The notes: a model not told the origin generated them from the sequence alone. 64,000 nt of DNA from Minisyncoccota bacterium (GCA_031291905.1 JARLIC010000137.1:51762-115761), one strand, 5' to 3'. Numbered from the stretch's first letter, positions 40,317 to 60,422 are shown. Translations and numbers: made by a program.

Positions 40317-40664
40317 TCACCGCGGTAATGCGTTCCAGTTACGGATCGCGATCCGCACTGAATCACCTTTGGAGCCTCGCATATAGCAGTTCGGGCAATG
40401 AACTTGCCAGAAACCAAAGTTCACGAAACAAGCTAGTCTGCCGTTGCCCCAAGTCCCATCGCAACCGCACCCAGGGCAAGGATCGATCGACGGCACTTCG
40501 GATTTGACAGCCTTAACATGGACGTTGATCGCTGCCATCCGTTCGTTGAACGCCCGGCCGTGCTTTTTCTTGCCCTCCGCATCGAGGGACTTGAACCACG
40601 CCTTGAGTTCCTTGGGCGAGTTAATGTCGGCGGGGATCATCTCAACCTCATTGTTGTCAGACAA
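40317..40664 (-). CDS. Lar-family-like restriction alleviation protein
   Basis: PCPGCGCDG....C......HCPNC.......DSVRIAIRNWNALPR fits the Lar pattern (CPFCG...C..CG....eAi.aWNrR). Confidence 0.55.
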   Translation of the reverse strand: MSDNNEVEMIPADINSPKELKAWFKSLDAEGKKKHGRAFNERMAAINVHVKAVKSEVPSIDPCPGCGCDGTWGNGRLACFVNFGFWQVHCPNCYMRGSKGDSVRIAIRNWNALPR

Positions 40665-41037
40665 GTCGACTCAAAAGCCTGTCGGCAACCGGAAACCCCC
40701 GCCTATCGACTATCGCATCGTACGCAACGTCATAGAATTTCGTTCGCCGCTCCAACTTTTCCTTTGCGGCGTAGGTTATGCACAAACACCCTCTGAGCAG
40801 ATACGAAGGCGTTTTAGAGACATCAAGATTGTCCAGGATCGAATCGATGATCTTGAACTCGCCTTCGTGGCACAATCGATCGATCGCATTGAAAACATGA
40901 TCGGTCGCCCCCTGACTATTGTCGATCGCCGTTAATGCGTATAGGTCTTCAAGGAACTCTGTAACATCGAAATCCATCATCCCTCCTAAATAGGATACGA
41001 CGCCGCGAACGAGTGCTCGCGACGCCGCTGTGATCAC
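40657..41037 (-). CDS. hypothetical protein
   Basis: ORF. Confidence 0.35.
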   Translation of the reverse strand: MITAASRALVRGVVSYLGGMMDFDVTEFLEDLYALTAIDNSQGATDHVFNAIDRLCHEGEFKIIDSILDNLDVSKTPSYLLRGCLCITYAAKEKLERRTKFYDVAYDAIVDRRGFPVADRLLSRLV

Positions 41038-41040
41038 TGC

Positions 41041-41349
41041 TTACTCAGTTCGCTCGATCGCCGCTATCGCCCACATCAGACATTGCTCAAGATTCGTCAG
41101 CGCCGATGACTGCTCACGCGACGCGGATGAGTGGTCGACGATGGACAAGGCGAGATTCTTGGCATCGTCCCGAAGTAACGCGAGAGGGATAACCTTGTCA
41201 GCCCGAACAGTGAGCTTTGCGGCGAACCGCTTCTCGACTTCTTCGCGGAATCGCTCGGCGCGAGTCTTTCCGTCATCGATATGAACAGCGTAGATGGGTG
41301 GCGGGTTATCTCTCACCGAACTTGGAGCCGGGTACACAGGGTTCATCAA
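41041..41349 (-). CDS. hypothetical protein
   Basis: ORF. Confidence 0.35.
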   Translation of the reverse strand: MMNPVYPAPSSVRDNPPPIYAVHIDDGKTRAERFREEVEKRFAAKLTVRADKVIPLALLRDDAKNLALSIVDHSSASREQSSALTNLEQCLMWAIAAIERTE

Positions 41350-41948
41350 AGCTCTCCTTCAAAAACCGATCCGCCGAAGTAGTCGATCACATCGAACTCA
41401 CGCGGGCGGGCGAACGGAATGTCGTCTTCCTGAAAAGCGTCCACCTCGGCCTGGCTGACAGGAACCGTTCGCCCCTGCCCACCCTGCCCGTTGTATCCGC
41501 CGCCGCCACGACCTTGCGGTGCGGGACCGCGACCCTGGGGAGGACCGCTGCGCGACTCGGCTTGCGGCTGGCGTTCGTTTCCGCCTTGGCTGCGCGGTCC
41601 GTCTTCGTCGCGAGCCTTAGCCTCAAGGTTCTGGACCCGGTCGGCGTTCACCTTGATTTTGCTCCGTTTCTCGCCGGTCGCCTTGTCGTCCCACTGGTCC
41701 ATCTTGAGCGAGCCTTCGACGAAGATCAGGTTGCCCTTGTGCAAGGTATTGCAGGCCCGCTCCGCCGCCGCACCCCAGACGGTCGCGTCGATATAGAGGA
41801 CTTCTTCCTTCCACTCGTCGTTCTTGTCCTTCCATGACCGATTGACGGCCATGCGGAGTTCGGTCACGGCCGATCCGCTTGGAATGCGGCGCAACTCGGG
41901 CTCGAAAGTCAGTCGGCCCATGAGTTGGACCTTATTTAAGTCAGCCAT
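41346..41948 (-). CDS. ssb: single-stranded DNA-binding protein
   Basis: N-terminal OB pattern MADLNKVQLMGRLTFEPELR..SGSAV..LRMAVNRSWKDK. Gly/Gln-rich tail ending EDDIPF plus ~20 extra residues. Confidence 0.8.
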   Translation of the reverse strand: MADLNKVQLMGRLTFEPELRRIPSGSAVTELRMAVNRSWKDKNDEWKEEVLYIDATVWGAAAERACNTLHKGNLIFVEGSLKMDQWDDKATGEKRSKIKVNADRVQNLEAKARDEDGPRSQGGNERQPQAESRSGPPQGRGPAPQGRGGGGYNGQGGQGRTVPVSQAEVDAFQEDDIPFARPREFDVIDYFGGSVFEGEL

Positions 41949-41964
41949 TCGTCGTCTCCTCTTC

Positions 41965-42306
41965 TTAGGAATATTGACCCGTCGGCAGGTCGTCGCCGTT
42001 GATCACGCATTCGTACGACGCTATGTTCGAGGACGTAATTTTCGCCGAAAAGTCGGCGATTCGAAATTTCCCCGACATACTGTACAACCGATTGCGAGAC
42101 GTGAGAATGCAATAGGCTGTAGCCTTCTGGCTCTGCAAGTACTCCAGGAGACCGTCGGGCAAATCGCTCAACCCGAAGACCCCCTTGACGCTGCCACCGA
42201 CGCCGCCGTTGGTAAGCCTCACGTCGATAGTATGAATCCCCAGTGCGACCGGCCCTACGCCATCGAACTCTATCCTCATCACCGCCGAACCACCATGACT
42301 ATCCAT
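41965..42306 (-). CDS. hypothetical protein
   Basis: Start MDSHGG is preceded by GGGAGGGTGAG. Confidence 0.4.
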   Translation of the reverse strand: MDSHGGSAVMRIEFDGVGPVALGIHTIDVRLTNGGVGGSVKGVFGLSDLPDGLLEYLQSQKATAYCILTSRNRLYSMSGKFRIADFSAKITSSNIASYECVINGDDLPTGQYS

Positions 42307-42307
42307 C

Positions 42308-42454
42308 TCACCCTCCCGCCATCTTAATAACGAACATTCCAACGACATAAACGAGCATCGCCGCAACCAGGCCGATCATCAAGAACCCGTTAGGCGCGGG
42401 CCGAAAAGGATCTATAACCGGCTGAGGTCGCTCAGGCTTCGGCGGAATCTCCAT
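42308..42454 (-). CDS. 48-aa hydrophobic peptide (MEIPPKPERP...LMIGLVAAMLVYVVGMFVIKMAGG)
   Basis: Not in the ORF track (<60 aa). Its ATG is preceded by the same GCGGGAGGGTGAGATGG element that also forms its stop (AGG-TGA). Confidence 0.35.
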   Translation of the reverse strand: MEIPPKPERPQPVIDPFRPAPNGFLMIGLVAAMLVYVVGMFVIKMAGG

Positions 42455-42544
42455 CTCACCCTCCCGCATACACCAGAAACCCCATTGCCACCACGAACAC
42501 CATCATCGCCACCGAGACGGCCGCCAGATGCCAGTTGAAGCGTC

Positions 42545-42931
42545 TCACAGCCCGTACCTCCCAGCCATCTCATGAACCCCTGAATCCGCCGCAACCTCGC
42601 AAACCGCCTGCTGCAACTCCTCCAGCGTCATCGCCCGACCCAGCGCGAGAATCGACTGATACGTCTCTTCCACCTGATCGCCGCAGTCTTCCGCCTTCAG
42701 CACCTTCTTGACGATGCGACGCAGCATGAACCGCTGGATGAAATTCGGATTGCGGCACTTGTCTAACGCGGTGCTCGATTTCCAGCACTCAAACAGCAGG
42801 ATCGCGATTTTCAAGATCGCGACGATGATCGCCACGGTTACGACGACGCTTCCTGGCTTGCTCTGAGCGTCGCGGGAGATGGTCGGCATGTTGGCGATGG
42901 TGCGTTCGGCGAGTCGGTCGATTTGGGTCAT
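42545..42931 (-). CDS. membrane protein
   Basis: TM segment VVVTVAIIVAILKIAILLF. Confidence 0.4.
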   Translation of the reverse strand: MTQIDRLAERTIANMPTISRDAQSKPGSVVVTVAIIVAILKIAILLFECWKSSTALDKCRNPNFIQRFMLRRIVKKVLKAEDCGDQVEETYQSILALGRAMTLEELQQAVCEVAADSGVHEMAGRYGL

Positions 42932-43305
42932 TGGGTCCCTTGCTTCTATTGTACGACGGCCTTGGTCGGCTATCGCATGAGGCTACTCCAGTTTACGGAA
43001 CGCTTGGATCGCTACTTGTTGCTTCGCCAATGCCGTCAATCAAGTATTTCCCCTTGCTGACCCAATTGACGCACGCTCCATTACTGGTTGCAAATCGAGA
43101 TAGACCTTTTGTGAGGCCGTTTGGCCCGCTCAGGTGAATCGACTCTATCACTGTGCCGTGCTCGAAAATCCTATGAGTGACCCCGAATGCATCAATCACA
43201 TCGAAGCACTGTTTTGTAGGGTGGATTCTGTTCATCGTATCTCCGATAGCCTTTGTCTTGTAATTGCAATGCGTACCAAACGGCCACGTGGCCATGCGGC
43301 GTACG

Positions 43306-43785
43306 TCACGCCGCGTTACTATCGGCCTCCAATGGGTAAAACTTGCCGCCCATTCTATAGCCGATAACTACCCCCAGGGTGTTCCGCGTCTCTTGTTTAA
43401 TGTGCTTGAACGCCTCCGGGGATCTCGCCATTACATGGCGTATGTTATACAGTCCTAACTTCTCTAGACGTTTGTGGGACAACAGCATCCCGCCGTTTGC
43501 GTCAGCCATGCCAGTGATAATGCGAACCCATTCTTGAATGGGCTTTGGTTTTTCCTGCTTCTTCTTTACAGAGATAGGATTCGGATCGCACTGATCCCGT
43601 GCAGGCTTCTGCTTCAGCCCTACGCCGCCGAATTCCGCTTTCGAGCACGACGGCCATGATGGGTACAAGAGAGCGACCCATCCTTTTCGACGACGAAATT
43701 CAGCCACGTCGTCCGGACGGCCGAACGGATCTTCCTTGATCCGATCGGCATAGGCCCTGGCTTCCCGATACTTCATAACAAGCAT
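43306..43785 (-). CDS. hypothetical protein
   Basis: ORF. Confidence 0.35.
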   Translation of the reverse strand: MLVMKYREARAYADRIKEDPFGRPDDVAEFRRRKGWVALLYPSWPSCSKAEFGGVGLKQKPARDQCDPNPISVKKKQEKPKPIQEWVRIITGMADANGGMLLSHKRLEKLGLYNIRHVMARSPEAFKHIKQETRNTLGVVIGYRMGGKFYPLEADSNAA

Positions 43786-43808
43786 GTACGCTTCTCGCCT
43801 CTTGCTGA

Positions 43809-44909
43809 TTACTTGATCTTGAAAGAGTATTCCTTGCGCTGGCCGTGATTAAGTTCGTCGAGCACCCCGCGCGCCGACGTCTTAACACCTTTATTCCTGT
43901 GGTACTCGCGCGCTTCTCGCGCCGCCTTGATGATGCCTGAAGCCTTGAGGTCAACGAGTTTGCTATGCCATTTCGTCCGGAGCAGCGACTCGCCTTCGCT
44001 GTTCTTCTGGATGTAGAACAGGGGGGCGACTACGCTCTCGTTGATGAACTCGCCGTCGTGCAATTCGACGAATAGAGGCCAGAGTTGCCTAAGGATTTCG
44101 CGGTCCTGGCTTGCGAGGTTCATCATCATCTTGATGCATCGAACACTGCGAGTGCCGCCCGGCTGGACTACGTAGCCATCCTGTGCAAACAAGTCGCGCA
44201 GGAAAACAGCGTTGGCCACACCGGCCTCGCATTTCGCCTTGAAGTCGTCATGCGGCGTGATGCGACGCCGTTCTTCGTTGGTTGCGATGTAAGCATTGGA
44301 CTCCTCGCGCTTATCCTGCATTTCATAGACCATGCAGGGGACGAACTCGATCGCATCGATCATATTTGCCGCAAGGAGCCGATGCCCTCCATCGTACACA
44401 AAGAAAGAACCGTCCGGACGACGTGCCACAAGCAGCGTGCCGAACGACGACCACCTGAATTTCCTCTTGATCGACTTGGCGAAATGAATGGCCGTCTCTC
44501 GCTGATAAGAGACGTCGATGAACAAACTCGACTTGTCGAGCATCATGAACTCGCCAGTTTCGTCCAGGATCGCACAGTCGCCGCCCGGCACCGCGAAGCC
44601 AAAGCCGTCGTCAACGTCGTCCTGATACGAAGTCTCAAAGTACACCGTGCACGGCACCGCCGCCCTGTCGACAGCCATTAGGATTTCGCGGCCCGATTTC
44701 AGCGTGCCGTCGGGATAGAATTGCACGACATGCCTACTGTTCCTCCATAGGCCGTTCCTGATGTCCTCTGTGAGCGCCATGACCAGACGCATGTCCCTTG
44801 GCCCGGTTGGTGCCCCAACCATGATCGCCCTGGCTCGCTCTGGAGTCACCATCTCAATGCTCGTGTCGCCACTATGCTCAACCATCGTTGCTTTCAAAAC
44901 CGTAGACAT
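43809..44909 (-). CDS. ParB-like nuclease domain protein
   Basis: LLVARRPDGSFFVYDGGHRLLAA fits the ParB N-domain GxxRxxA motif. Confidence 0.55.
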   Translation of the reverse strand: MSTVLKATMVEHSGDTSIEMVTPERARAIMVGAPTGPRDMRLVMALTEDIRNGLWRNSRHVVQFYPDGTLKSGREILMAVDRAAVPCTVYFETSYQDDVDDGFGFAVPGGDCAILDETGEFMMLDKSSLFIDVSYQRETAIHFAKSIKRKFRWSSFGTLLVARRPDGSFFVYDGGHRLLAANMIDAIEFVPCMVYEMQDKREESNAYIATNEERRRITPHDDFKAKCEAGVANAVFLRDLFAQDGYVVQPGGTRSVRCIKMMMNLASQDREILRQLWPLFVELHDGEFINESVVAPLFYIQKNSEGESLLRTKWHSKLVDLKASGIIKAAREAREYHRNKGVKTSARGVLDELNHGQRKEYSFKIK

Positions 44910-44970
44910 TCATGATCTCCTGTTATGAAGTTGCACTGAAACACCTGAACTGAAAACCCAACACCGACCC

Positions 44971-45255
44971 TCAGTCGTTGGCACTCTCGACGAGCGACAT
45001 TGACGCTTCGCCAGAAGACTCGTCTTCGGCTTGATCCTTGAATACGCCCTTCTTGCGTAAGTTGATAAGAGCGACGATGGCATCGTTCATTGTGCACGGA
45101 AAGTATTGGATCATATTGACCCAGAGAACTTCGTGCTCATAGGTACTGCCTATTTGGTCTGCCGACAAAGTGATTTCGCCTTCACTCTTTAAGCGCTTGT
45201 ACGTGGCCTCCAGAACTTCCTGGAAATCTTTTCTGTCACGGATTCTCACGATCAA
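44971..45255 (-). CDS. hypothetical protein
   Basis: ORF. Confidence 0.35.
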   Translation of the reverse strand: MIVRIRDRKDFQEVLEATYKRLKSEGEITLSADQIGSTYEHEVLWVNMIQYFPCTMNDAIVALINLRKKGVFKDQAEDESSGEASMSLVESAND

Positions 45256-46150
45256 CCTCCTCTAAGTAATCGATGCGCTGGCCGATCCACCGCATCATGG
45301 GAACTGGGAAAGAATTGCCGAGCACCGTCGTTCGCTGCTTGTCGCTCGCGGGGCGACCCTTATAAGTGACGCTCGTCCACTCATCCGGAAATCCCTGAAG
45401 CCTCTCCCACTCGATCGGCGTGAGCCGCCTTGTGATGCCGTCCCTGGCCACAAGCACTCCTTCGCCACCCTGACTTGCCCGAAGCGTCGGCGTCATTCCG
45501 ACGCAAGCTTTAGGGGTAGGGTCTCCGGTCCAACCGACGGGCTCCTTCCGAGTGCTTCCAGGAATTCGGGCGGCGCCGTCTTTCCGTATCGCGGAAACCT
45601 TGCCAGCATCTTGTCGATGGCCTCTGGCGTCAAAAAGTACCGCTGCGGCACGCTGCCATCGTCCTCCAGAATGTCCGACAACGAAGACGCGACGGCGTCG
45701 CTGGGGGACTCCGAAAGACTGGCAGTCCAGCACACGCCAGCACACGCCAAACCCGCACTCGGCCAGGATTTCAAGGAAGTTTCCGAAAGCCCTTCCGTTG
45801 TCGATGGACAGGATGCCAGGGACGTTTTCCCAGACGAACCATCGCGGGCGAAGAACCTCAAGAAGTCTTGCATAGTGCAGCGTGAGTCCGCCGCGATCGT
45901 CAGCCATGCCTTGTCGGCTTCCGACAATGGACCAACTTTGGCAAGGCGGTCCGCCAACGAGGACGTCGATCGGCCCATGTTCATCTCCGATGGTCGTCAT
46001 GTCGCCAAGGTTAGGAACGCTCGGATGCCGTTCAGCCAGCAACGCTGAAGCGAATGGGTCGATTTCAGAGAAAAAAGACGGCTTCCATCCCAGCGGTTCC
46101 CACGCCACCGTGGCGGCTTCTATCCCGCTGCACACACTGCCATAGATCAT
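45236..46150 (-). CDS. dcm: DNA (cytosine-5)-methyltransferase
   Basis: Motif I GSVCSGIEAA, motif IV GGPPCQSWS, ENV, QRRRRVFVVG and LGNSFPV are all present. Start MIYGSVC at 46150. Confidence 0.8.
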   Translation of the reverse strand: MIYGSVCSGIEAATVAWEPLGWKPSFFSEIDPFASALLAERHPSVPNLGDMTTIGDEHGPIDVLVGGPPCQSWSIVGSRQGMADDRGGLTLHYARLLEVLRPRWFVWENVPGILSIDNGRAFGNFLEILAECGFGVCWRVLDCQSFGVPQRRRRVFVVGHSGGRWQRAAAVLFDARGHRQDAGKVSAIRKDGAARIPGSTRKEPVGWTGDPTPKACVGMTPTLRASQGGEGVLVARDGITRRLTPIEWERLQGFPDEWTSVTYKGRPASDKQRTTVLGNSFPVPMMRWIGQRIDYLEEVDRENP

Positions 46151-46217
46151 CGTCGCTATCCCAATCCTGAATCGCCACGCAAGGTTCACGCGACTCGACG
46201 ATGTTGCTTTGCCATAA

Positions 46218-47329
46218 TTACTTATTGATCGGCATAACAACATACGTATAATTTTCGCCCGACCTGAACACCACCGCGTTCTTCGGGTCCAGCAAATCCA
46301 CCGTCAGGACCGTATCCATCTCCAGTGACCGCAACGCTTCGACGACGTACTGCGGGTCCATCGTCAGCGACATTCCATCCCCATCGAAGCCGCCCAGCAA
46401 AGGCAACTCGATGCACGATTGGCCGACGTCTGAGGCGTTGCTGGTCAACTCCACGCCATCGGACGAGAACTTGAACGTGACGCCCCGGCTTTCCTCGCTG
46501 GTCACGATCGAAGCCTGTTGCGTGGCCGACAAGAACGACGCCACGTCCAGCGGGATCGTGTACGTCGAGCTTTTGGGAAACACATCCTGATATCGCGGGA
46601 ACCGGCCTTCCACCAGCCGACTGTAGATCACGCTGTTCGACGACCGAACCACGACCGCAACGCCCTTAAGGAAGGCGACGTGAATCTGATCGCCGTCGCC
46701 GGACAGAGCCTTGTCGATCAGCTTCAGAGCTTTGACCGGAAGAACGCATTGCGAATCGTCCACGTCGCCGACCCGCTCAGCAGGAACCGTGGCTCGTGCC
46801 AGACGGCGGCCGTCGGTTCCGACGAACGAGACGCTGTCGTCCGCCCGTTCGACCAGGACGCCGCCGAGAGCGTATCGAGCCGAGTTCAGGTCGGTCGCAA
46901 AAGCCGTCCTCTTGATCAGCTTCTTCAAGTCCGAGTCGATCAGGACCATGTACGATTCGCTGTCAAACCCGGCTGGCTCGGGGAACAAACTTGGTTCTTC
47001 GTTCGGCAGGTTGAACCGTGACCGCTTGCCCCGGATCAGCAACTTGTCATCATCGGCTTCGATGCTGATCTCGTCGTCGATCGACGTCCGCAGGATTTGA
47101 CTGACGCGGTCGGTCGGCAGGATAACATGGCCGTCTCGATCGAACTTCACGCCAAGCAGCGTCCGCCGCACCCCGACTTCCAGATCCGTCGCGATCAATG
47201 TGCATTCGTCGTTGTCGATGACAAGTTTCACGTTTTGCAGGATCGGCTTGGGTGATCGAGCCGGCACGACGCTGGCGACCGTTGTAAACGCTTCGAGCAA
47301 GGCTTTTCGGTTGAACGTCGCTTTCAAGG
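46218..47329 (-). CDS. dnaN: DNA polymerase III beta subunit (sliding clamp)
   Basis: N-terminus KATFNRKALLEAFTTVASVVPARSPKPILQNVKL....LIATDLEV and C-terminal YTYVVMPINK are present. Likely TTG start at 47329 with GAGGTGG upstream. Confidence 0.8.
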
Positions 47330-47815
47330 TTCCACCTCGTGTGTCGGGCCATCTGATAGAAAGGTAGCCATCTGGTAATAGAACTTCTCTCGCCCCTCGA
47401 AGTCGTCTTCGACGGCGCATGCTTCGACCTTGCCGGCGTCCAAAAACATCGCCGCCGCACAGCCAGCCTGATCGATTTCGAGGTATACAGTGCGGTACTT
47501 ATGGGATTCGGTGTGTTTGAACATCATGCCGATTCCACCCTGGACGCAAGGTGACAGCCGCGTCAGGAATTGCATTCCTGGGTATTCAGCGAACAAGAAG
47601 TACTGAGCGACATCCAAAGCTTCCAGCGTCGGCGTCGGTGCGTCATATCCGTCCCACCCTGGCTTGAGCATCGTCAGCTTCACGAGCTTGGATTTCCAGT
47701 CGATCACGCTTCCCCTGACTCCCTCTGATCTCGATCCGCAAAAAACGTCTCGTAATCTGCTTTCGTCAACGACAGCAACTCGTCGTCCGGCATGCTGGCG
47801 AGGTAGGTGTTCCAC
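47324..47815 (-). CDS. hypothetical protein
   Basis: ORF. Confidence 0.35.
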   Translation of the reverse strand: MEHLPRQHAGRRVAVVDESRLRDVFCGSRSEGVRGSVIDWKSKLVKLTMLKPGWDGYDAPTPTLEALDVAQYFLFAEYPGMQFLTRLSPCVQGGIGMMFKHTESHKYRTVYLEIDQAGCAAAMFLDAGKVEACAVEDDFEGREKFYYQMATFLSDGPTHEVEP

Positions 47816-51142: not shown

Positions 51143-51750
51143 GCGAACAAGCCAAAAGCAGCGACGCGCGATCCCCGCACACTGACGCCCTCGATACGCT
51201 CGGAAGCATCATTACAGAGAACGAAAAGCGAGACGCGATCCACCTGGCGGTTGAAAATGTCGTGGCGGCCCACGTTCTTCGGCCTGGAGAGCATGTCGGT
51301 TTCTGGGCTGTTGGGATAGTCGGGAGCAGTTCTAAGCCAGTTGGGATCGTCGATCCTTTCCTGAAGACGGCCGTCAATGAAGGCGAGCACTTCTGGCTGA
51401 TCGTCTACCCTCGCCAGATCACGTCGCTTCGTCACGTCTGGACGCACCCGGCGTTTCCTGACGCATCGGAGCTGAAGACGCAGGAGGTCGCGATTCAACG
51501 CGAAGTCGATCCCGTTGCGGAGTCACGGCGGTGGATCGATAACTTCGCCGCGTCAATCGATCAAACGACCAATCGGCTGATGGAGGCGGCTGCCACTTGG
51601 ATCAATGACCGCGAGTTCACGTACGACAACAGCCGAGCCTATAGTGACTTTCAGCACAAGTTCCCGGAGTTCTGGGGCCACTATGAAGTCGTGACTGGGG
51701 CGAAGGTTGAAGAGGACGATCGCGAGAGGTTCTTTACGTGTGGCTGCTAA
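51139..51750 (+). CDS. hypothetical protein
   Basis: GTGA-coupled start. Confidence 0.4.
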   Translation: MSEQAKSSDARSPHTDALDTLGSIITENEKRDAIHLAVENVVAAHVLRPGEHVGFWAVGIVGSSSKPVGIVDPFLKTAVNEGEHFWLIVYPRQITSLRHVWTHPAFPDASELKTQEVAIQREVDPVAESRRWIDNFAASIDQTTNRLMEAAATWINDREFTYDNSRAYSDFQHKFPEFWGHYEVVTGAKVEEDDRERFFTCGC

Positions 51751-51763
51751 GGGAGGAAGCGAA

Positions 51764-52207
51764 ATGAATCGTCGTATCTTTGGAAAGAAATCAACAGGTT
51801 GGCTTGCGGCGTTCGGGGCTGTGCTTGGCGTGAAGACGGCACAGGCCCATGAGCCTTTCGGCCTGAAGGCGACGGGCCAACTAGAGACGATGGGCTACTG
51901 GAAAACCAAGCCGGATAATCCTGCCAGCACCGATCGGTATGGAATTTACATCAAGTTGGATAGTCCAGTTATCCAAGATGACGGAACCAAGTTGGATGAT
52001 TTCATCCTCCATATTTCAGAGTGCCGCAGGGCGTGGCATCTAAAATACAGAGTGACGAGTGCGGATGGAGTCATCTCGAAACAGTCAATCCATTGCGATC
52101 AACGCAATGCTATTCACGTCAATCGGAAGGGCTTGGATCAAATCCAGATTGGGACGGCTGCAATTTTCTTGCCGCCGAAGTACGAGGAGACGTCTTCATG
52201 TCCATGA
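51764..52207 (+). CDS. Tat-signal secreted protein, paralog 1
   Basis: MNRRIFGKKSTGWLAAFGAVLGVKTAQA signal. GGGAGGAAG upstream. Confidence 0.55.
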   Translation: MNRRIFGKKSTGWLAAFGAVLGVKTAQAHEPFGLKATGQLETMGYWKTKPDNPASTDRYGIYIKLDSPVIQDDGTKLDDFILHISECRRAWHLKYRVTSADGVISKQSIHCDQRNAIHVNRKGLDQIQIGTAAIFLPPKYEETSSCP

Positions 52208-52632
52208 ATCTGAATCGCCGCGCCTTCAGCAAGAAATCAGCCGGAGCATTCGGAGCCGTCCTCGCAGCCCTGGGCGTGAAGACGGCGACGGCGGAGAAGC
52301 TGTCGACGCCGATGGCTGGTGGTCGGCTGGAGACGGTGGGCTATTGGACCCACGAAACCTGCAAGCCCGATGTCGATCCATTGCCGGCCGTGCATCTCCA
52401 TGGTCAGGATTGGCCCGCTGGGTCCAAACGGCTCCACGTGCAATCCAGGGTGGCCAAGCTAAATCACAGCTATACGGCCGCATGGAAAGGCAAGCCACAA
52501 ATGAAGTGCACCAATTGGGCCGTCGTTCGCGTGTACCTGAACCGCGATGGAACAGAGACGTACGAGTTTGTCCCGGCCGATGGTCAGTCTGAATTGCTTC
52601 GCAAGAATGAGCCGATCGGCACCTTTTCCTGA
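52198..52632 (+). CDS. Tat-signal secreted protein, paralog 2
   Basis: MSMNLNRRAFSKKSAGAFGAVLAALGVKTATA signal. Shares the RLETVGYW motif with paralog 1. Confidence 0.55.
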   Translation: MSMNLNRRAFSKKSAGAFGAVLAALGVKTATAEKLSTPMAGGRLETVGYWTHETCKPDVDPLPAVHLHGQDWPAGSKRLHVQSRVAKLNHSYTAAWKGKPQMKCTNWAVVRVYLNRDGTETYEFVPADGQSELLRKNEPIGTFS

Positions 52633-52642
52633 AAGGACCACC

Positions 52643-52981
52643 ATGAACCGGCGTGACTTCGTTGGCAAGGCGGCTGGGGCTTCGGCCCTGGCTGCTACTG
52701 GCGGAATGGCAAAGGCTGACGTAGTCGAGCCGCCGGCAGAGGTTTGCAAACTTCGGCACACGGCCGAAGATGGGCCGCCGTGCGTGAGGATCAAGGTGCT
52801 CGGGGTCACGAAAATCTATGACATGAGCGCCACGAGCTGGAATAGCGATCACCCCGGCTCCAAATGGGAATGCGAGTACGAGTTGACTCGGATCGACGGC
52901 AGCACGGTAATCAGAACCGCGAACACGGTTCAACTGGGCAGCGACAAGCAGCCCAAATCCTTTGGATTCGACCTCTCTTGA
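52643..52981 (+). CDS. Tat-signal secreted protein 3
   Basis: MNRRDFVGKAAGASALAATGGMAKA signal. Confidence 0.5.
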   Translation: MNRRDFVGKAAGASALAATGGMAKADVVEPPAEVCKLRHTAEDGPPCVRIKVLGVTKIYDMSATSWNSDHPGSKWECEYELTRIDGSTVIRTANTVQLGSDKQPKSFGFDLS

Positions 52982-53001
52982 CAATCAGGAGTCCCCAGAG
53001 A

Positions 53002-53316
53002 ATGCATGATCGCACGGAGCACCTCGACTTGCTGGCCGACCACGTTGTTGAGATCATAGGCGGGCTTCAGCGTGAAGCCGTCCGGGAAGCCGTCAGCGAC
53101 GCGACCGCGATCAACATTTGCAAGATCAAACCTTCGGCTATTCATCCTAATGGCCAGCCGATGTTTGATGCCAAAACCTTGCAATACGCTGACGGCCTCA
53201 TGGAAGACGTGTTTAGCCACATCGCCAGCAAGTGGTCCGAGTTCCGCGAGATTCAGCGGCGGCTCTGTTCGGCGAGTGCGATGCATTACGATGAAAATGG
53301 GGACTTCGATCTATGA
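53002..53316 (+). CDS. hypothetical protein
   Basis: CAGGAG upstream. Confidence 0.35.
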   Translation: MHDRTEHLDLLADHVVEIIGGLQREAVREAVSDATAINICKIKPSAIHPNGQPMFDAKTLQYADGLMEDVFSHIASKWSEFREIQRRLCSASAMHYDENGDFDL

Positions 53317-53570
53317 GCAAGGCAAAACCAGAAACCAGGAGTTCAGAACCAATCAAGGAGATCAAGAGCGAAATGCAAGTCCGTAGAGAAGTTTACGAAG
53401 CGGCGAAGCGAGACATCATCCAGGTCGTCGTCGAACTGGCCACGGAGCACGAGTTGTTCCCTATCGAGATCGTCGCGATCCTTGGCGAGATCGGTGCGAA
53501 GTTCTCGGTGGAAGAACTCAACCGCCAGTACGAAGAGTTCTACGAACCGGCCGACGCGGACGCGAGGTGA
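53313..53570 (+). CDS. hypothetical protein
   Basis: ORF. Confidence 0.35.
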   Translation: MSKAKPETRSSEPIKEIKSEMQVRREVYEAAKRDIIQVVVELATEHELFPIEIVAILGEIGAKFSVEELNRQYEEFYEPADADAR

Positions 53571-53595
53571 CAACGATGCAACCGCCCGCTCGACG

Positions 53596-54225
53596 ATGAG
53601 TGGGCGGCCTTTTATCAGGAGTGCCATATTGAGGTATGTGAGCATCGATATCGAGACGACGGGATTGAATCCGGAGACGGATCAGATCCTTGAGTTCGGA
53701 GCCGTGATCGACGACACGCTGAGGCCAGATGTTCCGGTTGAGGAACTGCCGACGTTCCGCAAGGTAATCCGGAGCGACCGGCTATCCGGGACGCCAATGG
53801 CAATCGCCATCAACGCGAGCCTGATCAACTTCATTGCTTCCGTGGAAAAGCCGGAAGAGAACGAATTGTTCTGCCTTCCTAAAGATCTTGGCTTCGAGTT
53901 CTTCGTTTGGCTTCGAGGTCATGGATTCAAGATCAAGAACAACTCGAATGCGGCCTTTGTGCCAGCAGGAAAGAACTACGCCGGATTCGATTCCAGGTTC
54001 CTAAATAAGATCCCCCACTGGAATACGTATCTGACTCCATGCCATCGCACGCTCGACCCCGCCATCCTCTACTTCGATCCCCTGAAGGACGAGAAGCCGC
54101 CGAGCCTTTACGAATGCCTGGAGCGGGCTGGGTTCGACGCTACGGTGAAGCACACGGCCGTCGACGACGCACGTGATGTGGTGCGACTTCTTAGGCATAA
54201 GTTTGCGGAGGTGTCTGGTGGCTGA
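53596..54225 (+). CDS. DEDD-family 3'-5' exonuclease
   Basis: Exo I motif YVSIDIETTGL and Exo III motif HTAVDDARDVVRLL. Confidence 0.7.
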   Translation: MSGRPFIRSAILRYVSIDIETTGLNPETDQILEFGAVIDDTLRPDVPVEELPTFRKVIRSDRLSGTPMAIAINASLINFIASVEKPEENELFCLPKDLGFEFFVWLRGHGFKIKNNSNAAFVPAGKNYAGFDSRFLNKIPHWNTYLTPCHRTLDPAILYFDPLKDEKPPSLYECLERAGFDATVKHTAVDDARDVVRLLRHKFAEVSGG

Positions 54226-55180
54226 GAACACGAAGATTCAGTGGGCCACGCACACCTGGAGCCCACATCGTGGATGTGCGAAAATCAGCCCTGGGTGTGC
54301 TAATTGCTACGCGGAACGCGGCAGTCATCGCAACCCAGGACTATTCGGCGTATGGGGAGTGAACGGCAACCGAGTCATCAACGCTGACTGGGACAAGCCG
54401 CTGGCGTGGGACCGCAAGGCCGCCAAGCTCGGCGAACGGCACCGCGTGTTCCCGTCGCTGTGCGACCCGTTCGAGGATCGCGAGGATCTGGACGGGTCGC
54501 GGTCGCGGCTTCTGGAGTTGATCAGCAAAACGCCGAACCTCGATTGGCTGCTACTGACGAAACGTCCCGAGAACTGGCGTCCGCTGATGCAAAGATTGGC
54601 GAACGCCGGAGTCAGCGACGGCGACTGCTTGGCGGGCGACTGGCTCGCCGGAAATCCGCCCGCCAACGTCTGGCTCGGCGTGTCGGTCGAGAATCAGGAA
54701 TACGCGGACAAGCGTCTGCCTATCTTGCTTCAGATCCCAGCCGCGATCCGCTGGGTGAGCTATGAACCCGCGTTGGGGCTAGTCGATTTTAAACCTCATA
54801 TCTGGGACATCGACTGGATCGTATGCGGTGGCGAGAGCGGGCCAAGGGCCAGGCCCTTCGACCTTCGCTGGGCCGAAGCCGCACGCGATCAATGCAAGGA
54901 AACCGACGTGTTGTTCTTCATGAAGCAGGCCGGTTCTCGGCCGATCATGAGCAGCGACGAGGCCAATCCCATCAAGCGGGCCGTCTGCGAGAAATACAAC
55001 GCCGGCTGGATCGAGCGGCACATCACCGATCCCAAAGGCGGTGCGATCGAGGAATGGCCAGAGGATCTGAGGGTCCGCGAGATCCCAGTTGTCGGAGCGA
55101 CGCCAGCCGAGATCAAGAAGGCCGAGGCGAAGGGGATGCCGCTGTTTGATTCTACAGAGAAGGAGACTGGCCTTGAGTGA
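54218..55180 (+). CDS. phage Gp37/Gp68-family protein
   Basis: TKIQWATHTWSPHRGCAKISPGCANCYAERG fits the N-terminal hallmark of this family. Probable GTG start at 54218 after GGAG. Confidence 0.6.
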   Translation: MAENTKIQWATHTWSPHRGCAKISPGCANCYAERGSHRNPGLFGVWGVNGNRVINADWDKPLAWDRKAAKLGERHRVFPSLCDPFEDREDLDGSRSRLLELISKTPNLDWLLLTKRPENWRPLMQRLANAGVSDGDCLAGDWLAGNPPANVWLGVSVENQEYADKRLPILLQIPAAIRWVSYEPALGLVDFKPHIWDIDWIVCGGESGPRARPFDLRWAEAARDQCKETDVLFFMKQAGSRPIMSSDEANPIKRAVCEKYNAGWIERHITDPKGGAIEEWPEDLRVREIPVVGATPAEIKKAEAKGMPLFDSTEKETGLE

Positions 55181-55475
55181 CGCGAAAGAGATTATCGCCA
55201 AGCTGGAATTTATCGATGGTATTCATAGTCTGTATCAGGACGATCGAAAGACGATCGACGAGGCTATTGAGTTCATTGAGCGGCTAACGAAGCCGATGAC
55301 GCTGAAAGAGTGCCGCGACATCTTGAACGCGAACGAGTACAGCTTCGATCTCTGGGACGCACCTTGGGAAGTAGAGGGCGACGTGCTCTACAACGGGCTG
55401 GACGCACTGACATTGTTTGAGGCAAACGCACTGTCGCGTGCCTACATGGTCCAGAAGGAGGCTGGACGTGGCTGA
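55173..55475 (+). CDS. hypothetical protein (TTG start)
   Basis: AGGAG lies 7 nt upstream of TTG. Confidence 0.35.
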   Translation: MSDAKEIIAKLEFIDGIHSLYQDDRKTIDEAIEFIERLTKPMTLKECRDILNANEYSFDLWDAPWEVEGDVLYNGLDALTLFEANALSRAYMVQKEAGRG

Positions 55476-55842
55476 AACGAGCGAACTGCTAAAAGAGATC
55501 CGGCACGTCCTGGATAGCGAGAATACCGAGATAATAGATCTCTACGACGCCCTTGAGAAGGCGGCCGAGTTCATCGAGGGATGCGGCAAGCCAACCGAGA
55601 AGATCAAGGCGAAGTCGAATACGACGAAAGGGCTTCTCGAAGCCTGCCTGTGCGGCAAGTCTCCCGTCGTGCTCGACAACACGGCGAACGGCAAGTGGTC
55701 GATCGGATGCTATCAGGCGTTCTTCGGGCTGATGCCGGGCGAAACTGAATGCAAGGACAGGCCGGCGGTCGTTGAAGCGGAGTCGCGAGGGCATGCGGTC
55801 GAGACCTGGAATGAGCTGATCGTGCGGCGCAGGAATGCGTGA
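55468..55842 (+). CDS. Lar-like zinc-ribbon protein (weak)
   Basis: CLCGKS....C......ECKD......HAVETWNELIVRR. GTG start after AAGGAGG. Confidence 0.35.
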   Translation: MAETSELLKEIRHVLDSENTEIIDLYDALEKAAEFIEGCGKPTEKIKAKSNTTKGLLEACLCGKSPVVLDNTANGKWSIGCYQAFFGLMPGETECKDRPAVVEAESRGHAVETWNELIVRRRNA

Positions 55843-55896
55843 CGCCGCGAAGTCCGCCTTGCAATTCCATATTAGTAGACGAGAACAGGAGAGAAC

Positions 55897-56640
55897 ATGG
55901 GGATTCCGAGGGCGATCCTGTGTACGCCAAGATTTTCCGACGAGGTCAACGCTTTGTCGTTCATGTCCTCCCAGAATGCGACAAGAAATGAACTTCATCC
56001 ACCCGAAGATCATATCGAGATCGTGTACAACGTCGGCGCGAAAGGGTCGCTTTTGACCCTCTGCTTCAACCAGCTCCTCGTCGAAGCCCTGAATAAACGA
56101 GACGAAGGCGAAGTCGATTATATAGTCATGGCTCACGCGGACATAGCGGCCAGCCCAGGATGGCTCAACGTCTTATTCTCTCGCCTCCGCCAACGCGGAG
56201 ACGTGGTCGTGTCGGCGGTCGTGCCGATCAAGGAGCCGCAGAAATCCAAGACGAGCTGTGCCGTCGGCTCGCGCAGAGACCACTACGATATCCGCCGCTA
56301 TATCACGACAGAAGATCGCCTGTCGACGCCCGAGACGTTCGCCACCAAAGATGTCGCAAGGGACGACGACGAGGTTTTGCTGATAAATACAGGCATGTGG
56401 ATCGGAGATCTTTCATGGCCAGGATGGGACGCCTTCGCGTTCGACTTCGAGAACAAGATCATGGTGAACCCGGCCAGCGGGAAGCGCCAGGCGTTTTGTC
56501 TTCCTGAGGACTGGGCCATGTCTTTTGCCCTAGATGAGGCCACCGCTCCGTACAGTGCGTCGTGGGCCGTGCAAACCTACCATTTTGGCCCGAGCGTCTG
56601 GGATAGCCACGAGATTCCGGCTGCCGTGGGGGCGCAATGA
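55897..56640 (+). CDS. hypothetical protein, possible GT-A-like DxD (DYIVMAHAD)
   Basis: ORF. Confidence 0.35.
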   Translation: MGIPRAILCTPRFSDEVNALSFMSSQNATRNELHPPEDHIEIVYNVGAKGSLLTLCFNQLLVEALNKRDEGEVDYIVMAHADIAASPGWLNVLFSRLRQRGDVVVSAVVPIKEPQKSKTSCAVGSRRDHYDIRRYITTEDRLSTPETFATKDVARDDDEVLLINTGMWIGDLSWPGWDAFAFDFENKIMVNPASGKRQAFCLPEDWAMSFALDEATAPYSASWAVQTYHFGPSVWDSHEIPAAVGAQ

Positions 56641-57516
56641 GCAAGACGAACTCGGATCGCGACCGGCTCAACTTCATCGGCCAATCCTATGCCACCGTCA
56701 ACCATAACGGCCATGCGTGGGAAGTCAGGTTCATGAACGGCCAATGTGCCGTTCACAAGCAGCTACGCAAAGCCGTGGACGAGGCTATGCGATTCACCAA
56801 AGCGATAACCCGGGACGGAGATTGAATCCATGTCCACCACCGCATTTTTGATCTATGCTTCTTTCGTGGCCGGAGCCGCCTGTGCGGTCGCCTTCTCTTG
56901 GGTCGTCTCCAAGATCACCTTCCGTCCCAAAAAATAGACACCAACAGCAAGATATTTCGCTTGCTTTTTGGTCGGCGTCTTGCTAAAGTATAGAAAGGAG
57001 AAGATCAATCGTAACAGCAAGACGGAGGGACAGTTTGAGCGTTGTGAAAGAGGCTGTTTTCGTCACGGTTCTGATCGTGGCGTGGTACGCGGCGTGGCTG
57101 GCGATCGATTTCGTCAGACCCATGGATACGGCGGAAGCCAGGAAGTCGAATCCCGGGGCCGTAACGCCCGAGAACGCCCCGCTTCTTGGGCCTGGAATCG
57201 AGCGAACGATCGAAGCGTTGGGCGGATCAGTGGAGGAAGGGGTTGAGCCTTGAGTGAAGATTTCAAGTCGGTCATTGCGTTCGAAAAGGCTTGCGGCAAG
57301 GAATTGGACGCAGTGGAGGGAGAGTAAGATGGCAAAGATGCTGAGGATCGTGGTTCGGTCCTATATTTTCGACGAGGTCGACATCGCCGAAGACGAGTGG
57401 AATGCGATGAGCCGCAAAGACAGGGAAGACATGGCTCGCACGGTTTTGCGAGGCGCGGGCATCTGTGACATCGAGTTTAACGAAGAGTATCTGGACGAAG
57501 GGGAGGACGACTGAAC

Positions 57517-57963
57517 GTGGAATCAGCTTTCAGGCAAGTTTGCCGGTTTGAAGAGGCGTTCGGACATGAATTGTCCAGTAAGCCTCCGGCAGCACCAAGC
57601 AGGGATACGATCCGGCTTCGGCGGAAACTGATCCTTGAAGAAGCACGAGAGACGCTGGCTGCTCTCCGCGTCGTCCAGAAGGCCGTTGAGGCTGGAGACT
57701 CCGTGACTGGCGAGATGCTGGCCGAGGTGGCTGATGGATCGGCGGATTTGCAATTCGTCTGCAAGGGAACCGATGTCGCCTTTGGGGTCGACGGGCCTGC
57801 GGTCATGAACGAAGTGTGCCGAGCCAACCTCTCGAAATTCGGCCCTGGCCACTACTACGACGAGACGGGAAAGCTCAGAAAACCACCGGGATTCAAGCCT
57901 CCCGACATTCTCGGCGTGATCATGAATCAGAAGCCACTCGCTGAGTTGTACGGGAGCGAATGA
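57517..57963 (+). CDS. MazG/HisE-like nucleotide pyrophosphohydrolase
   Basis: FEEAFG......LRRKLILEEARE...A......E.ADGSADLQFVCKG..VAFGVDG...EVCRANLSKF. Confidence 0.5.
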   Translation: MESAFRQVCRFEEAFGHELSSKPPAAPSRDTIRLRRKLILEEARETLAALRVVQKAVEAGDSVTGEMLAEVADGSADLQFVCKGTDVAFGVDGPAVMNEVCRANLSKFGPGHYYDETGKLRKPPGFKPPDILGVIMNQKPLAELYGSE

Positions 57964-58098
57964 TGCATGAGTCCCGACGCCACAAGATCCTGGCCCGCAT
58001 CGAGAAGCGGAAGTGGCCTGAAGGCGACACTGCCTACATTCACCCTTTCTACTTTCCCGGCGTAAAGTCGAAGACAATAACGACGTGGGACGAGTTCT

Positions 58099-58530
58099 GT
58101 GTCGCGATGGGAATCGAATCGAAACTCAGGGAGCCAGAGATTGAGTATCCTGACCGGAATAAGTCCGTCCCAATGGGAGCGAGACCATATCATCGCCGTA
58201 AGGCAGGGCGTTAAGTACATCGCCGAGCACGATGCTGTGCCGGACACACCGATGTGGGACATGCTGGTTCATCGTCACGAGATCAATACCGCGAGGTTCG
58301 ACCACTACCATCACGTCGTCGGCAACGCTCTCGAAGAACTAGCCAGGCGACGCCTGACCGAATTCACCTGCCCGCCGCCCTACGACCACAAAGCCCCGTG
58401 CATCCCGTCGATCGAATGCCGGCCCGAAGTCCCGCTCCATCCCCAGGTCGTGCCTGAGCCGGGTTCGGTGATCAGCCTTGTTATCGGGCTCGTCCTATTG
58501 ATGGCTTTTGGCGTGAGGAGGATGCGATGA
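58099..58530 (+). CDS. hypothetical protein with C-terminal TM segment
   Basis: VISLVIGLVLLMAFGV. Start uncertain. Confidence 0.3.
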   Translation: MSRWESNRNSGSQRLSILTGISPSQWERDHIIAVRQGVKYIAEHDAVPDTPMWDMLVHRHEINTARFDHYHHVVGNALEELARRRLTEFTCPPPYDHKAPCIPSIECRPEVPLHPQVVPEPGSVISLVIGLVLLMAFGVRRMR

Positions 58531-58877
58531 GCACGTTCTACGCGAAATCCAGCAAGGTCGACGCGGTGCAGTGGTTCAAGGAAGGCGATCATCCCGACGT
58601 CTATATGCTCGGCGGCGACCCGTACTTCAAGACAGAAAACTCGGTCGTTCCTCAAGACGTGAATCCTGGGGATTGGATCGTCACGCCGCCGAACGGCAGG
58701 TCGATGCTTTGTTCGCACGAAGAGTTCAATGAGGCGTACGGCCAAGAAAGCGATTCCATCAAAGCCTTCGCCAACCACGTCCGCGACGTCAGCAGCGAGT
58801 TCTCGTCGGTCCACGGCAAGCGGTTGATCGTCGTCGATGAGAGCAAACTGAAAGCGTTCCTGCAAGCAACGGAGTAG
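58527..58877 (+). CDS. hypothetical protein
   Basis: ORF. Confidence 0.35.
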   Translation: MSTFYAKSSKVDAVQWFKEGDHPDVYMLGGDPYFKTENSVVPQDVNPGDWIVTPPNGRSMLCSHEEFNEAYGQESDSIKAFANHVRDVSSEFSSVHGKRLIVVDESKLKAFLQATE

Positions 58878-58881
58878 AGCG

Positions 58882-59496
58882 ATGGCCGCAAAGACCACCA
58901 GGATCAAGAGGCTGACCAAGAAGAAGAAGGATGAGGCTGCGAAGAACGTCCCGTTGGCCAAGCACATCGCGAAGAAAATGGGATGGCGAGATCTTCCGAT
59001 GGAGGATCAGATCCAAGAGGCGTCCGTCGGCCTGTGCAAAGCGGTGAACGGATTCGATCCATCCAGGGGAACGAAGCTGAGCACCATGATCGGCCGATGT
59101 GCGATGAACGAGATCTTGTCTGCGAGGCGGAAGTACGGTTTGATCCGGATACCAGACTACCTCCAAGAGAAAGCGAACGCCGAACACGGCCTCCAGAAGC
59201 ACGTCAAACAGGCCGGAAAGCGGCTCAGTATCGACGGGATATCGGAGGACTCGGAATTTCATCCAAGGTGCCCCGAAGACGACGACTCCGAGTTCGGCTG
59301 GAAGGCGATGCGGGCGGTTCGATGGGCCGTCCAGAAGCTTCCGCCGATCGAGCGGGACGTGATTCGCGGGCTGATGTTCCGCCAGGAAACAGCCCGCGAA
59401 CTGGGCAAGAAGCACGGCGTCCACGTCTCGGTGGTGCGTCACCTGAAAGACACAGCCTTGGCGAAGTTGCGAGCGAGTTTGGTTAAGCACGTGTAA
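58882..59496 (+). CDS. sigma-70 family sigma factor
   Basis: Region 2: PMEDQIQEASVGLCKAVNGFDPSRGTKLSTMIGRCAMNEI. Region 4: IERDVIRGLMFRQETARELG...VSVVRHLKDTALAKLR. Confidence 0.75.
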   Translation: MAAKTTRIKRLTKKKKDEAAKNVPLAKHIAKKMGWRDLPMEDQIQEASVGLCKAVNGFDPSRGTKLSTMIGRCAMNEILSARRKYGLIRIPDYLQEKANAEHGLQKHVKQAGKRLSIDGISEDSEFHPRCPEDDDSEFGWKAMRAVRWAVQKLPPIERDVIRGLMFRQETARELGKKHGVHVSVVRHLKDTALAKLRASLVKHV

Positions 59497-59511
59497 ATAA
59501 CTGGGGGCGAC

Positions 59512-60072
59512 ATGGCCAAAAAGAAGCCGACCGCGAAAGGATTGATTCCCTTTGACCTGCCATTGAATGAGGAACAAAAAGAACTGGCGGCGTCGTGCGA
59601 GAGGATGGTGGTGAACATAGCGAAGAAGTCGGCGAATCGGAACAACAACTTCGACGACCTGATCGACGCCGGGCAGATGGGCCTCATACGAGCCGCCCAG
59701 ACATACGACGAGGCGAAAGGTGCGTTTTCGACGCACGCGTATCGGTGGATTTTAGCGAAAGTGCTGAGAGCAAGACATGAGCTAAACAAGAACAACGCCA
59801 GAAAGGATTACGCATTCGACGTGCGGAATCTTCCGTCTCGCCCGGCCGAAGACACCTGGTTTGACCCAGATGTCGTATTGCAAGCCTTCGACTCCCTTCC
59901 CAGGCAACTTCAGGACGTTGTTCGACTCAGGGTCTGGGATGACGACGCCAAGAAGCTGGATAAGGTCGCCAGGCGGCTGGGCTGCGTAAAACAAACGGTC
60001 TTAACCCGCCAAGCCAAGGCGTTCGGAATCCTCCGCGACACGCTCTGGCGATACGCACGGGAGGCTTCATGA
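59512..60072 (+). CDS. sigma-70 family sigma factor (second, adjacent)
   Basis: Region 2: FDDLIDAGQMGLIRAAQTYDEAKGAFSTHAYRWI. Region 4: LQDVVRLRVWDDDAKKLDKVARRLGCVKQTVLTRQAKAFGILR. Confidence 0.75.
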   Translation: MAKKKPTAKGLIPFDLPLNEEQKELAASCERMVVNIAKKSANRNNNFDDLIDAGQMGLIRAAQTYDEAKGAFSTHAYRWILAKVLRARHELNKNNARKDYAFDVRNLPSRPAEDTWFDPDVVLQAFDSLPRQLQDVVRLRVWDDDAKKLDKVARRLGCVKQTVLTRQAKAFGILRDTLWRYAREAS

Positions 60073-60422
60073 CCAACTCGTGCCCCGGCTGCCGATCAAC
60101 CAAGGTCCAGCCCGTCTTGTCGCTACATGTCGGCTGGCGGGTCTTGTGCTCCGGGTGCTTGATGATGGGGCCGATCGGCGTGGATCAGACGGACGCGGAG
60201 AACAGGTGGAATAGGTTGCCACGAGTTTCCGATTTGGACGCCGAGATGAGGTATTTGTTCGATGTGATCAGTGCTGTCGCCAGGGGAGCCCATGACGACG
60301 AGCAGATGGAGTTCAGGACAAGTCTGAGCGGCTCTTGGATGACGGTAGGCGGCATCCGAAGGGCTGTTGCTCAGTGGAAGAATCTGCCTCGTGCGGAATA
60401 CGCTATTGAGGAGCTGCCATGA
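60069..60422 (+). CDS. Lar-family-like restriction alleviation protein
   Basis: SCPGCRS......(x12)...CSGC..MGP.....DAENRWNRLPR. Confidence 0.55.
   Translation: MTNSCPGCRSTKVQPVLSLHVGWRVLCSGCLMMGPIGVDQTDAENRWNRLPRVSDLDAEMRYLFDVISAVARGAHDDEQMEFRTSLSGSWMTVGGIRRAVAQWKNLPRAEYAIEELP

Follow-up and report, generated by a model that had tools for sequence, protein, structure and literature searches.

Lar, a product of the Escherichia coli Rac prophage, acts on EcoKI (King and Murray, 1995, according to the passage of PMC10286901 that cites it). Like Ral, it is described as alleviating restriction by stimulating the methyltransferase activity of the host type I system (PMC10286901). Ral of phage lambda is itself known for type I restriction alleviation (PMC12707154), and in another setting a Lar-related domain substitutes for the C-terminal domain of one DnaE1 (PMC3919608). 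The present analysis concerns a 64,000-nucleotide (nt) stretch of DNA from Minisyncoccota bacterium (GCA_031291905.1, JARLIC010000137.1:51762-115761), hereafter the window, which is part of the genome of a novel, previously undescribed tailed phage. Three small proteins with a Lar-type domain (PF14354) at their core, here called open reading frames (ORFs) A, B and C, are encoded in it together with a C5-cytosine DNA methyltransferase. Both Lar-like genes and C5 methylases of the orphan kind belong to the commonest accessory annotations of phage genomes. What was observed directly comprises the identities of the domains, the intactness of the catalytic motifs, the order of the genes and their synteny with a distant phage. 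On these we lean, with modest confidence, towards an account in which the methylase would protect the phage itself and the Lar domains would be binding modules, with ORF A acting in counter-defence and ORFs B and C as conserved components of a gene module. All four ORFs had been picked out in an earlier, sequence-only reading of the same DNA, and all four are present (lengths in amino acids, aa):

40317-40664, minus strand: ORF A, 115 aa from the TTG at 40664, with a Lar-type domain at its C-terminus
45236-46150, minus strand: orphan C5-cytosine DNA methyltransferase, 304 aa, PF00145
55468-55842, plus strand: ORF B, 124 aa, with a putative derived Lar-like domain in its C-terminal part (~nt 55633-55818)
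60069-60422, plus strand: ORF C, 117 aa, with an N-terminal Lar-type domain

The Lar-type domain consists of a four-cysteine zinc ribbon of about 50 residues followed by an A-x2-W-N-x-L-P-R helix. The signature of the domain, CPxC...CxxC...W[NK]xxPR, matches exactly twice when the window is translated in all six frames, once in ORF A and once in ORF C, compared with 0 to 0.005 matches in residue-shuffled sets. The four-cysteine pattern is followed by A (CPGC...CPNC) and C (CPGC...CSGC); B carries CLC...C-x13-C, with a CxC first knuckle and a C-x13-C second knuckle. The A-x2-W-N core of the helix is present in all three proteins (AIRNWNALPR in A, AENRWNRLPR in C, and AVETWNEL retained in B). 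Unrelated metagenomic proteins supplied 71 Lar-like domains for a hidden Markov model (HMM) that excluded A and C, and all 1207 six-frame segments of the window were searched with it. Only A (68.6 bits, E 2.8e-20) and C (41.0 bits, E 1.1e-11) match clearly over the window. In a run that included RalR/Lar of E. coli K-12 (from NC_000913), the latter scored 43.8 bits, C 42.6 and A 68.6. The Lar signature claimed for A and C by the sequence-only reading is thus borne out by profile search, and Lar-like genes do lie on both divergent transcription units, as it had stated. The same reading had named PF14354 (gathering score 28.6 bits) for a check by HMM search. The C-terminal 57 residues of A pass that score when scanned alone (29.4 bits), and the full protein falls just below it (27.4 bits); B gives no hit, and neither PF14354 nor the PHROG Lar models hit C, whether whole or trimmed. 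ORF A also matches phrog_599, 'Lar-like' restriction alleviation, at 1.1e-5. TIGR03655 (anti_R_Lar, cut-off 39.6 bits) is the single family match for each of A and C, at 18.2 and 18.3 bits respectively (E ~0.002), below the cut-off.

Further comparisons place both proteins in a wider family. A profile of A and its one homolog, run by full HMMER scan over 1.84 billion representative proteins, returned 54 proteins; 42 of the 49 scanned belong to PF14354, and in many of the relatives the domain is repeated in tandem, two to five times. The 71 domains of the Lar HMM were drawn from this set. For ORF C, hhalign against the Lar profile gave 98.4% (E 8.8e-15). An AlphaFold 2 (AF2) model of C reached a pLDDT of ~95 over residues 1-52, with two hairpins and a helix, and its best match among the BFVD viral models was Bcep1 gp71 (E 5.5e-4, TM 0.79), together with over a dozen 'Lar family' proteins. 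ORF C, whose start is called at 60069 (117 aa) on a public contig, is a genuine but divergent Lar-type domain. The ribbon and helix occupy residues 3-52 (nt 60075-60224) and are followed by a helical and then a disordered extension (60225-60422), which repeats the Lar helix motif without cysteines (IRRAVAQWKNLPR compared with AENRWNRLPR) and may be the remnant of a second tandem domain. A and C are 38% identical over 53 residues by BLASTP (E 7e-6), and each has closer relatives elsewhere than the other; they are not recent paralogs. No match to the domain of A or to C was found by tblastn among 50,697 phage records, and word-indexed homolog searches with A, B and C returned almost exclusively the same phage.

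The setting of ORF A bears on its likely role. Its start more likely lies at the ATG at 40640 (107 aa), as called on public contigs. A helical N-terminal module of ~45 aa precedes residues 60-115 (~nt 40320-40487), which form a C4 zinc ribbon of the canonical Lar type and its helix. The module (40520-40640, minus strand; PADxxSxKELKAWFKxLDAxxKKxHGRAFNER) recurs with unrelated C-termini in two metagenomic proteins: P0004 (L015), whose gene directly follows SSB, and P0005 (L016), whose gene follows that of a cpYpsA SLOG protein. To judge by sequence, this module suggests a domain-swapping accessory locus. On the minus strand the order is SSB, an Acb2/Tad1-like gene, one ORF and then ORF A, three genes downstream of SSB. 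The closest Lar relative of A, P0015, likewise lies downstream of ERF and SSB genes, and ralR adjoins recT in Rac. ORF A thus looks to belong to an accessory island that is variable and lies in the region of early recombination genes, probably the kind of place where counter-defence genes collect. The Acb2/Tad1-like gene between SSB and ORF A is the following:

41041-41349, minus strand: predicted Acb2/Tad1-hairpin domain protein, 102 aa, PF24729

The Acb2/Tad1 family comprises anti-CBASS and anti-Thoeris sponges. The 41041-41349 protein scores 37.6 bits against PF24729 (gathering score 27), a hit that is also precomputed on a public contig, and it matches phrog_1454. The PF24729 match is at profile level and covers the C-terminal 42 residues; a pairwise PDB search against solved Acb2 or Tad1 structures gave no match. 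The product is a candidate cyclic-nucleotide sponge directed against CBASS or Thoeris.

The methylase has PF00145 at 190 bits and TIGR00675 at 178 bits (cut-off 100.65). Alignment with phage methylases gave its motifs in order: I SVCSGIEA, IV GGPPCQSWS, VI ENVPG, VIII QRRRRVFVVG, IX RRLTPIEWERLQGFP and X GNSFPVP. It aligns end to end with these enzymes, at up to 61% identity (Caulobacter phage DMCA); orphan methylases of phages are its nearest annotated relatives, and its start at 46150 (MIYGSVCSGIEA) is consistent with the homologs, in agreement with the coordinates first proposed for it. The original description as 'Dcm-type' is accurate at the level of the superfamily only: against the model of the E. 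coli Dcm subfamily (NF007772 / PRK10458, CCWGG) the protein scores 42.7 bits, with a cut-off of 710; E. coli Dcm and this enzyme are not orthologs. Next to the methylase lie dnaN, a 94-aa ORF without a family and a ParB-like gene. Family scans of these neighbours detected no nuclease family, a result that leaves room for a novel small nuclease. The methylase is an intact orphan enzyme and, to judge by these neighbours, not part of a complete restriction-modification system.

An internal frameshift or overlapping gene in the methylase was considered and rejected. An alternative frame at 45493-45984 (minus strand, +1 shadow; LSDILEDDGSVPQRYFLTPEA...) resembles methylase sequence when translated and has significant tblastn hits to phage methylase genes, and these fall in the shadow frame of the homologs too; the hit in DMCA at 30103-30294, for example, is out of frame with the coding sequence at 29063-30739. 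Its peptide had no blastp match among annotated proteins. Because the hits lie in the shadow frame of the homologs and the main frame aligns end to end, the alternative frame is a shadow-frame artefact, and a trap for frameshift calls. Gene callers divide the methylase on L001 and L002, where the division point is the contig end.

Palindromes are strongly avoided in the window. Over positions 1-64000, GCGC occurs 141 times against 406 expected under a Markov model (0.35 of expectation, z = -13). Among 6-bp palindromes, the observed and expected counts are 1/34.5 for CCGCGG, 2/24 for GGATCC, 0/20 for CTCGAG, 2/21 for TTCGAA, 0/17 for GGGCCC and 0/10 for GAGCTC. In the same window GATC, CCWGG and CCGG are not avoided, and CCWGG is neither avoided nor enriched (105 observed, 110 expected). 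Type II restriction has clearly left its mark on the phage, and this avoidance shows independently that it is under restriction pressure. The avoidance also speaks for protection by the methylase at a site outside the avoided set. The attempt to read the methylase target itself from these statistics was rejected, as they give the avoided sites and not the methylated one. The strong avoidance of GCGC argues against HhaI-like protection of that site. The avoidance of palindromes and the Acb2/Tad1-like gene are the best independent signs of counter-defence, which the sequence-only reading did not contain.

On the plus strand, ORF C directly follows two adjacent genes of the sigma-70 family:

58882-59496, plus strand: first sigma-70-family gene
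59512-60072, plus strand: second sigma-70-family gene

Across 58882-60072 the pair carries Sigma70_r2 and r4 domains and matches TIGR02937 and phrog_351. The nearest relative of ORF C, P0030, led to contigs L007-L010, which represent a distantly related phage (hereafter the L007 phage). The two phages have in common the order B homolog, 247-aa protein, PRA-PH, sigma, sigma and Lar-like gene, with other genes interspersed. In both, the start of the Lar-like gene (ORF C in the window) overlaps the stop of the second sigma gene (ATGA). Their sigma factors are 26-31% identical and their Lar-like genes 45-49% (45% for the ribbon of C); the C ortholog of the L007 phage has no C-terminal extension. 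ORFs B and C are positional orthologs kept in a distant phage.

Under the favoured account, the methylase would modify the DNA of the phage at some short site and thereby shield it from cognate host restriction enzymes. The Lar-like domains would be zinc-stabilised binding modules and not enzymes. Because ORF A stands in a variable island after SSB, with the Acb2/Tad1-like gene two genes away and relatives that swap their C-terminal domain, it most likely serves in counter-defence. By analogy with what is thought for Lar of Rac, it would bind the host type I restriction-modification complex and shift it from cutting to modification. The stimulation of methyltransferase activity ascribed to Lar, and one Lar-like relative next to a C5 methylase (P0033, below), are counted in favour of this account. 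ORFs B and C would be conserved components of their module, and C may act with the two translationally coupled phage sigma factors. Only the methylase has a well-founded anti-restriction role.

Several observations weigh against this account. To our knowledge, restriction alleviation has been tested for only one member of the Lar family. C and B fall under the curated Pfam threshold, and A and C under that of NCBIfam. PDB searches by sequence profile and by fold recovered only generic zinc ribbons and no Lar structure. The synteny of B and C at 45-49% identity, in a phage with sigma factors of only 26-31% identity, is more what one would expect of a housekeeping function than of a gene in an arms race. 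In the few relatives that were checked, the neighbours of Lar-like genes vary (sigma factors, methylase, ERF/SSB, P22 Y8K6-like), and no single partner is implied by these contexts. Finally, E. coli RalR has been reported to be a non-specific DNase and type I toxin that cleaves both methylated and unmethylated DNA (PMC4041452).

The sequence-only reading had proposed that three anti-restriction Lar paralogs and the methylase together form a layered defence against host restriction. This is rather unlikely as a whole and has support only in part; its components are real: the Lar-family homology extends to A, B and C, the methylase is present, and the avoidance of palindromes shows strong restriction pressure. 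The literature cited above holds that Lar stimulates modification. Several Lar-like copies per phage or per protein are also found elsewhere, with at least two Lar-annotated proteins in other phages. In a single instance on an unrelated metagenomic contig (L020, 269-2053), the gene for a 71-aa Lar-like protein, P0033, lies 4 nt downstream of that for a 521-aa C5 DNA methylase. Against the reading, the function is carried across from one protein, for which a role as DNase toxin has been reported as well, at ~30% identity over 50 residues. Moreover, A and C are not mutual closest relatives, and the zinc ligands of B are altered. B and C belong to a module that a distant phage has kept, and C is coupled to the gene of a sigma factor; this is not the pattern usual for counter-defence genes with their fast turnover.

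A different role for ORF C, and possibly B, would be that of a transcription partner, in which the ribbon binds one of the two phage sigma factors or the host RNA polymerase as an anti-sigma factor or co-factor and times a transcription switch. Modules of the zinc-ribbon type are often associated with RNA polymerase, and the weak matches in the PDB are to RPA12, RPB9 and TFIIS-type ribbons. The sigma-sigma-Lar-like order and the ATGA overlap are kept in the window and in L007-L010, with sigma factors of only 26-31% identity and a ribbon of 45%. This order, however, is seen in only two related lineages and may simply reflect synteny by descent. Around five other Lar-like relatives there is no sigma gene; one directly follows the 521-aa C5 methylase gene, and others sit among unannotated small genes or beside P22 Y8K6-like genes. 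A search of viral contigs for related loci with the sigma-2 alignment found none, and a metagenome search gave no more than two distant sigma-4 matches, both lacking a Lar-like ORF in the vicinity. The L007 ortholog of C does not have its C-terminal extension, and family scans found no known anti-sigma motif or family hit. On balance, a role as transcription partner is rather unlikely, but for C it is a live alternative. Its most specific form is slightly less likely still: here the Lar-type ribbon of C and its L007 ortholog would be a dedicated partner of the sigma pair, as anti-sigma factor or co-factor, and not an anti-restriction protein, with B as a second, remodelled copy in the same module. 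If C did partner the sigma factors, the Lar fold would be a general-purpose binding module reused by phages for transcription control.

The place of ORF B in the family needs separate consideration. Its start is called at GTG 55468 (124 aa) on a public contig. The sequence-only reading had called this third copy weak, and so it is: alone, B reaches 10.1 bits on our Lar HMM (E 0.049), at the noise level set by an obvious noise segment at 24972-25154 (10.4 bits), and hhalign gives 77%. Neither the whole nor the trimmed protein has a hit in Pfam, PHROG or NCBIfam, and a single-sequence AF2 model was uninformative (pLDDT 38). With its non-canonical knuckles, B might on this evidence be unrelated to Lar and owe its resemblance to a chance cysteine pattern and a WNEL helix. 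This is improbable in the light of its homolog in the L007 phage, a 90-residue protein related to the C-terminal part of B (49% identity over 67 aa, E 2e-17). The homolog keeps a canonical CPSC first knuckle and has in common with B the C-x13-C second knuckle followed by the A..WNE helix. A two-sequence profile of B and this homolog aligns with the Lar profile at 96.7% by hhalign (E 4e-10), across the whole domain and with one insertion in the second knuckle. Because the homolog keeps CPSC and the pair profile spans the Lar domain, B is accepted, with slight doubt, as a probable derived Lar-like domain with altered zinc ligands. A search with the B-family profile for related loci found no relatives. 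By eye, the ORF upstream of B (55089-55475) and the N-terminal half of B have a similar helical stretch (DEAIEFIER / KAAEFIEG), and the two may be paralogous N-terminal modules.

It is highly improbable that the Lar-like proteins serve as DNA nucleases or toxins of the RalR type for host DNA degradation or addiction: the founding protein RalR is reported to cleave DNA as a type I toxin (PMC4041452), but no active site of a nuclease is recognisable in a zinc ribbon of 50 residues, no context of an antitoxin RNA was evident (none was examined), and the two to five tandem copies, or fusions (DUF551, DnaE C-terminus), in many relatives suggest a binding and not a catalytic module.

The wider setting is that of a phage genome, of which this region is the early/middle half. 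Its identity is given by genes for an HK97-type capsid protein, a large terminase, a tail-completion domain, SSB, the DnaN sliding clamp and an RNA ligase. A DUF5131 protein, an exonuclease of the RNase T type and a PRA-PH protein resembling MazG are also encoded, and most small ORFs in the window have no family match. Genes lie on the minus strand from ~39.3 to 48.8 kb and on the plus strand from ~49.5 kb onward, and the gap between these divergent blocks contains promoter-like sites pointing both ways. A few metagenomic contigs carry proteins identical to those of the window. One contig at NCBI with identical proteins (n=1) is labelled as a metagenome-assembled genome of Candidatus Pacebacteria, and window positions 30317-45706 are 100% identical to locus L001.

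Several further features were noted in the window. The large terminase gene (33315-35864, minus strand) contains a LAGLIDADG domain, which appears to sit in an intein splitting the Walker A loop (PPRHGK / ALALSTPIPT...MIPTCN / STMTS). At 19020-20669 (plus strand), a 549-aa protein with a class I S-adenosylmethionine-dependent methyltransferase domain (Methyltransf_23, 1.2e-21) is encoded inside the structural-gene block on the opposite strand. Three consecutive ORFs at 51707-52981 (plus strand) contain similar Tat-like signal peptides (MNRRIFGKKSTGWLAAFGAVLGVKTAQA, MNLNRRAFSKKSAGAFGAVLAALGVKTATA and MNRRDFVGKAAGASALAATGGMAKA); without family hits, they look like a small family of secreted paralogs. 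The 143-aa ORF at 58099-58530 (plus strand) has a PEP-CTERM-like hydrophobic C-terminal tail (17.8 bits, below the cut-off of 20.7), which, if real, hints at a host with exosortase systems.

The proteins described here add new and divergent members to kinds already known; the genome is novel, its parts in this respect are ordinary ones for a phage. Of minor novelty are the remodelling of the B-type domain and the conservation of the sigma-sigma-Lar arrangement. Their interest lies in annotation. The label 'restriction alleviation' attached to Lar-like proteins in many phage genomes goes back to a single genetic result from 1995. A phage with three divergent Lar copies in distinct contexts (accessory island, conserved module and sigma-coupled) offers a convenient test of it. 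If the annotation is true, palindrome avoidance, self-methylation, modulation of the Lar type and a candidate nucleotide sponge come together in one phage; if it is false, a very common annotation needs revision.

Comparison with described systems places each component. The 41041-41349 product passes the threshold of the Acb2/Tad1 hairpin domain (PF24729), like the known sponges, but differs from the solved members in having no pairwise similarity to them. The methylase has every motif in common with the phage orphan C5 methylases (phrog_116; Caulobacter phage DMCA, Roseobacter phage CRP-821 and Burkholderia phage Bcep22), at 41-61% identity, and also the family-typical VFVVGHxGDWRxAAAVLFE stretch after motif VIII. 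At 304 aa compared with 357-558 aa, it has the shortest variable/target-recognition region of those compared. Against the solved C5 methylases M.HaeIII and M.HhaI, residues 9-160, which make up its catalytic domain, give matches with E 8e-24 and 3e-19, respectively, whereas its target-recognition region gives none. Between Ral of phage lambda and the Lar fold we know of no sequence similarity, and Ral is an analogue for mechanism only. As such it is the functional model for Lar, speeding first-strand modification (PMC12707154; PMC10286901). The closest described protein is Lar/RalR of the E. coli K-12 Rac prophage (b1348; PF14354, TIGR03655). It is a single-domain protein of 64 aa, to which A and B compare with additional helical modules at the N-terminus and C with an extension at the C-terminus; the phage proteins belong to a subgroup with C-x2-C-x-M-x-G-P and WNxLPR, and the knuckles of B are remodelled. 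RalR shows the same layout of ~50 residues, comprising CPxCG, a beta hairpin, CxxC and a helix ending in WN, and ORF A, like ralR, lies in an early region beside recombination/SSB-type genes.

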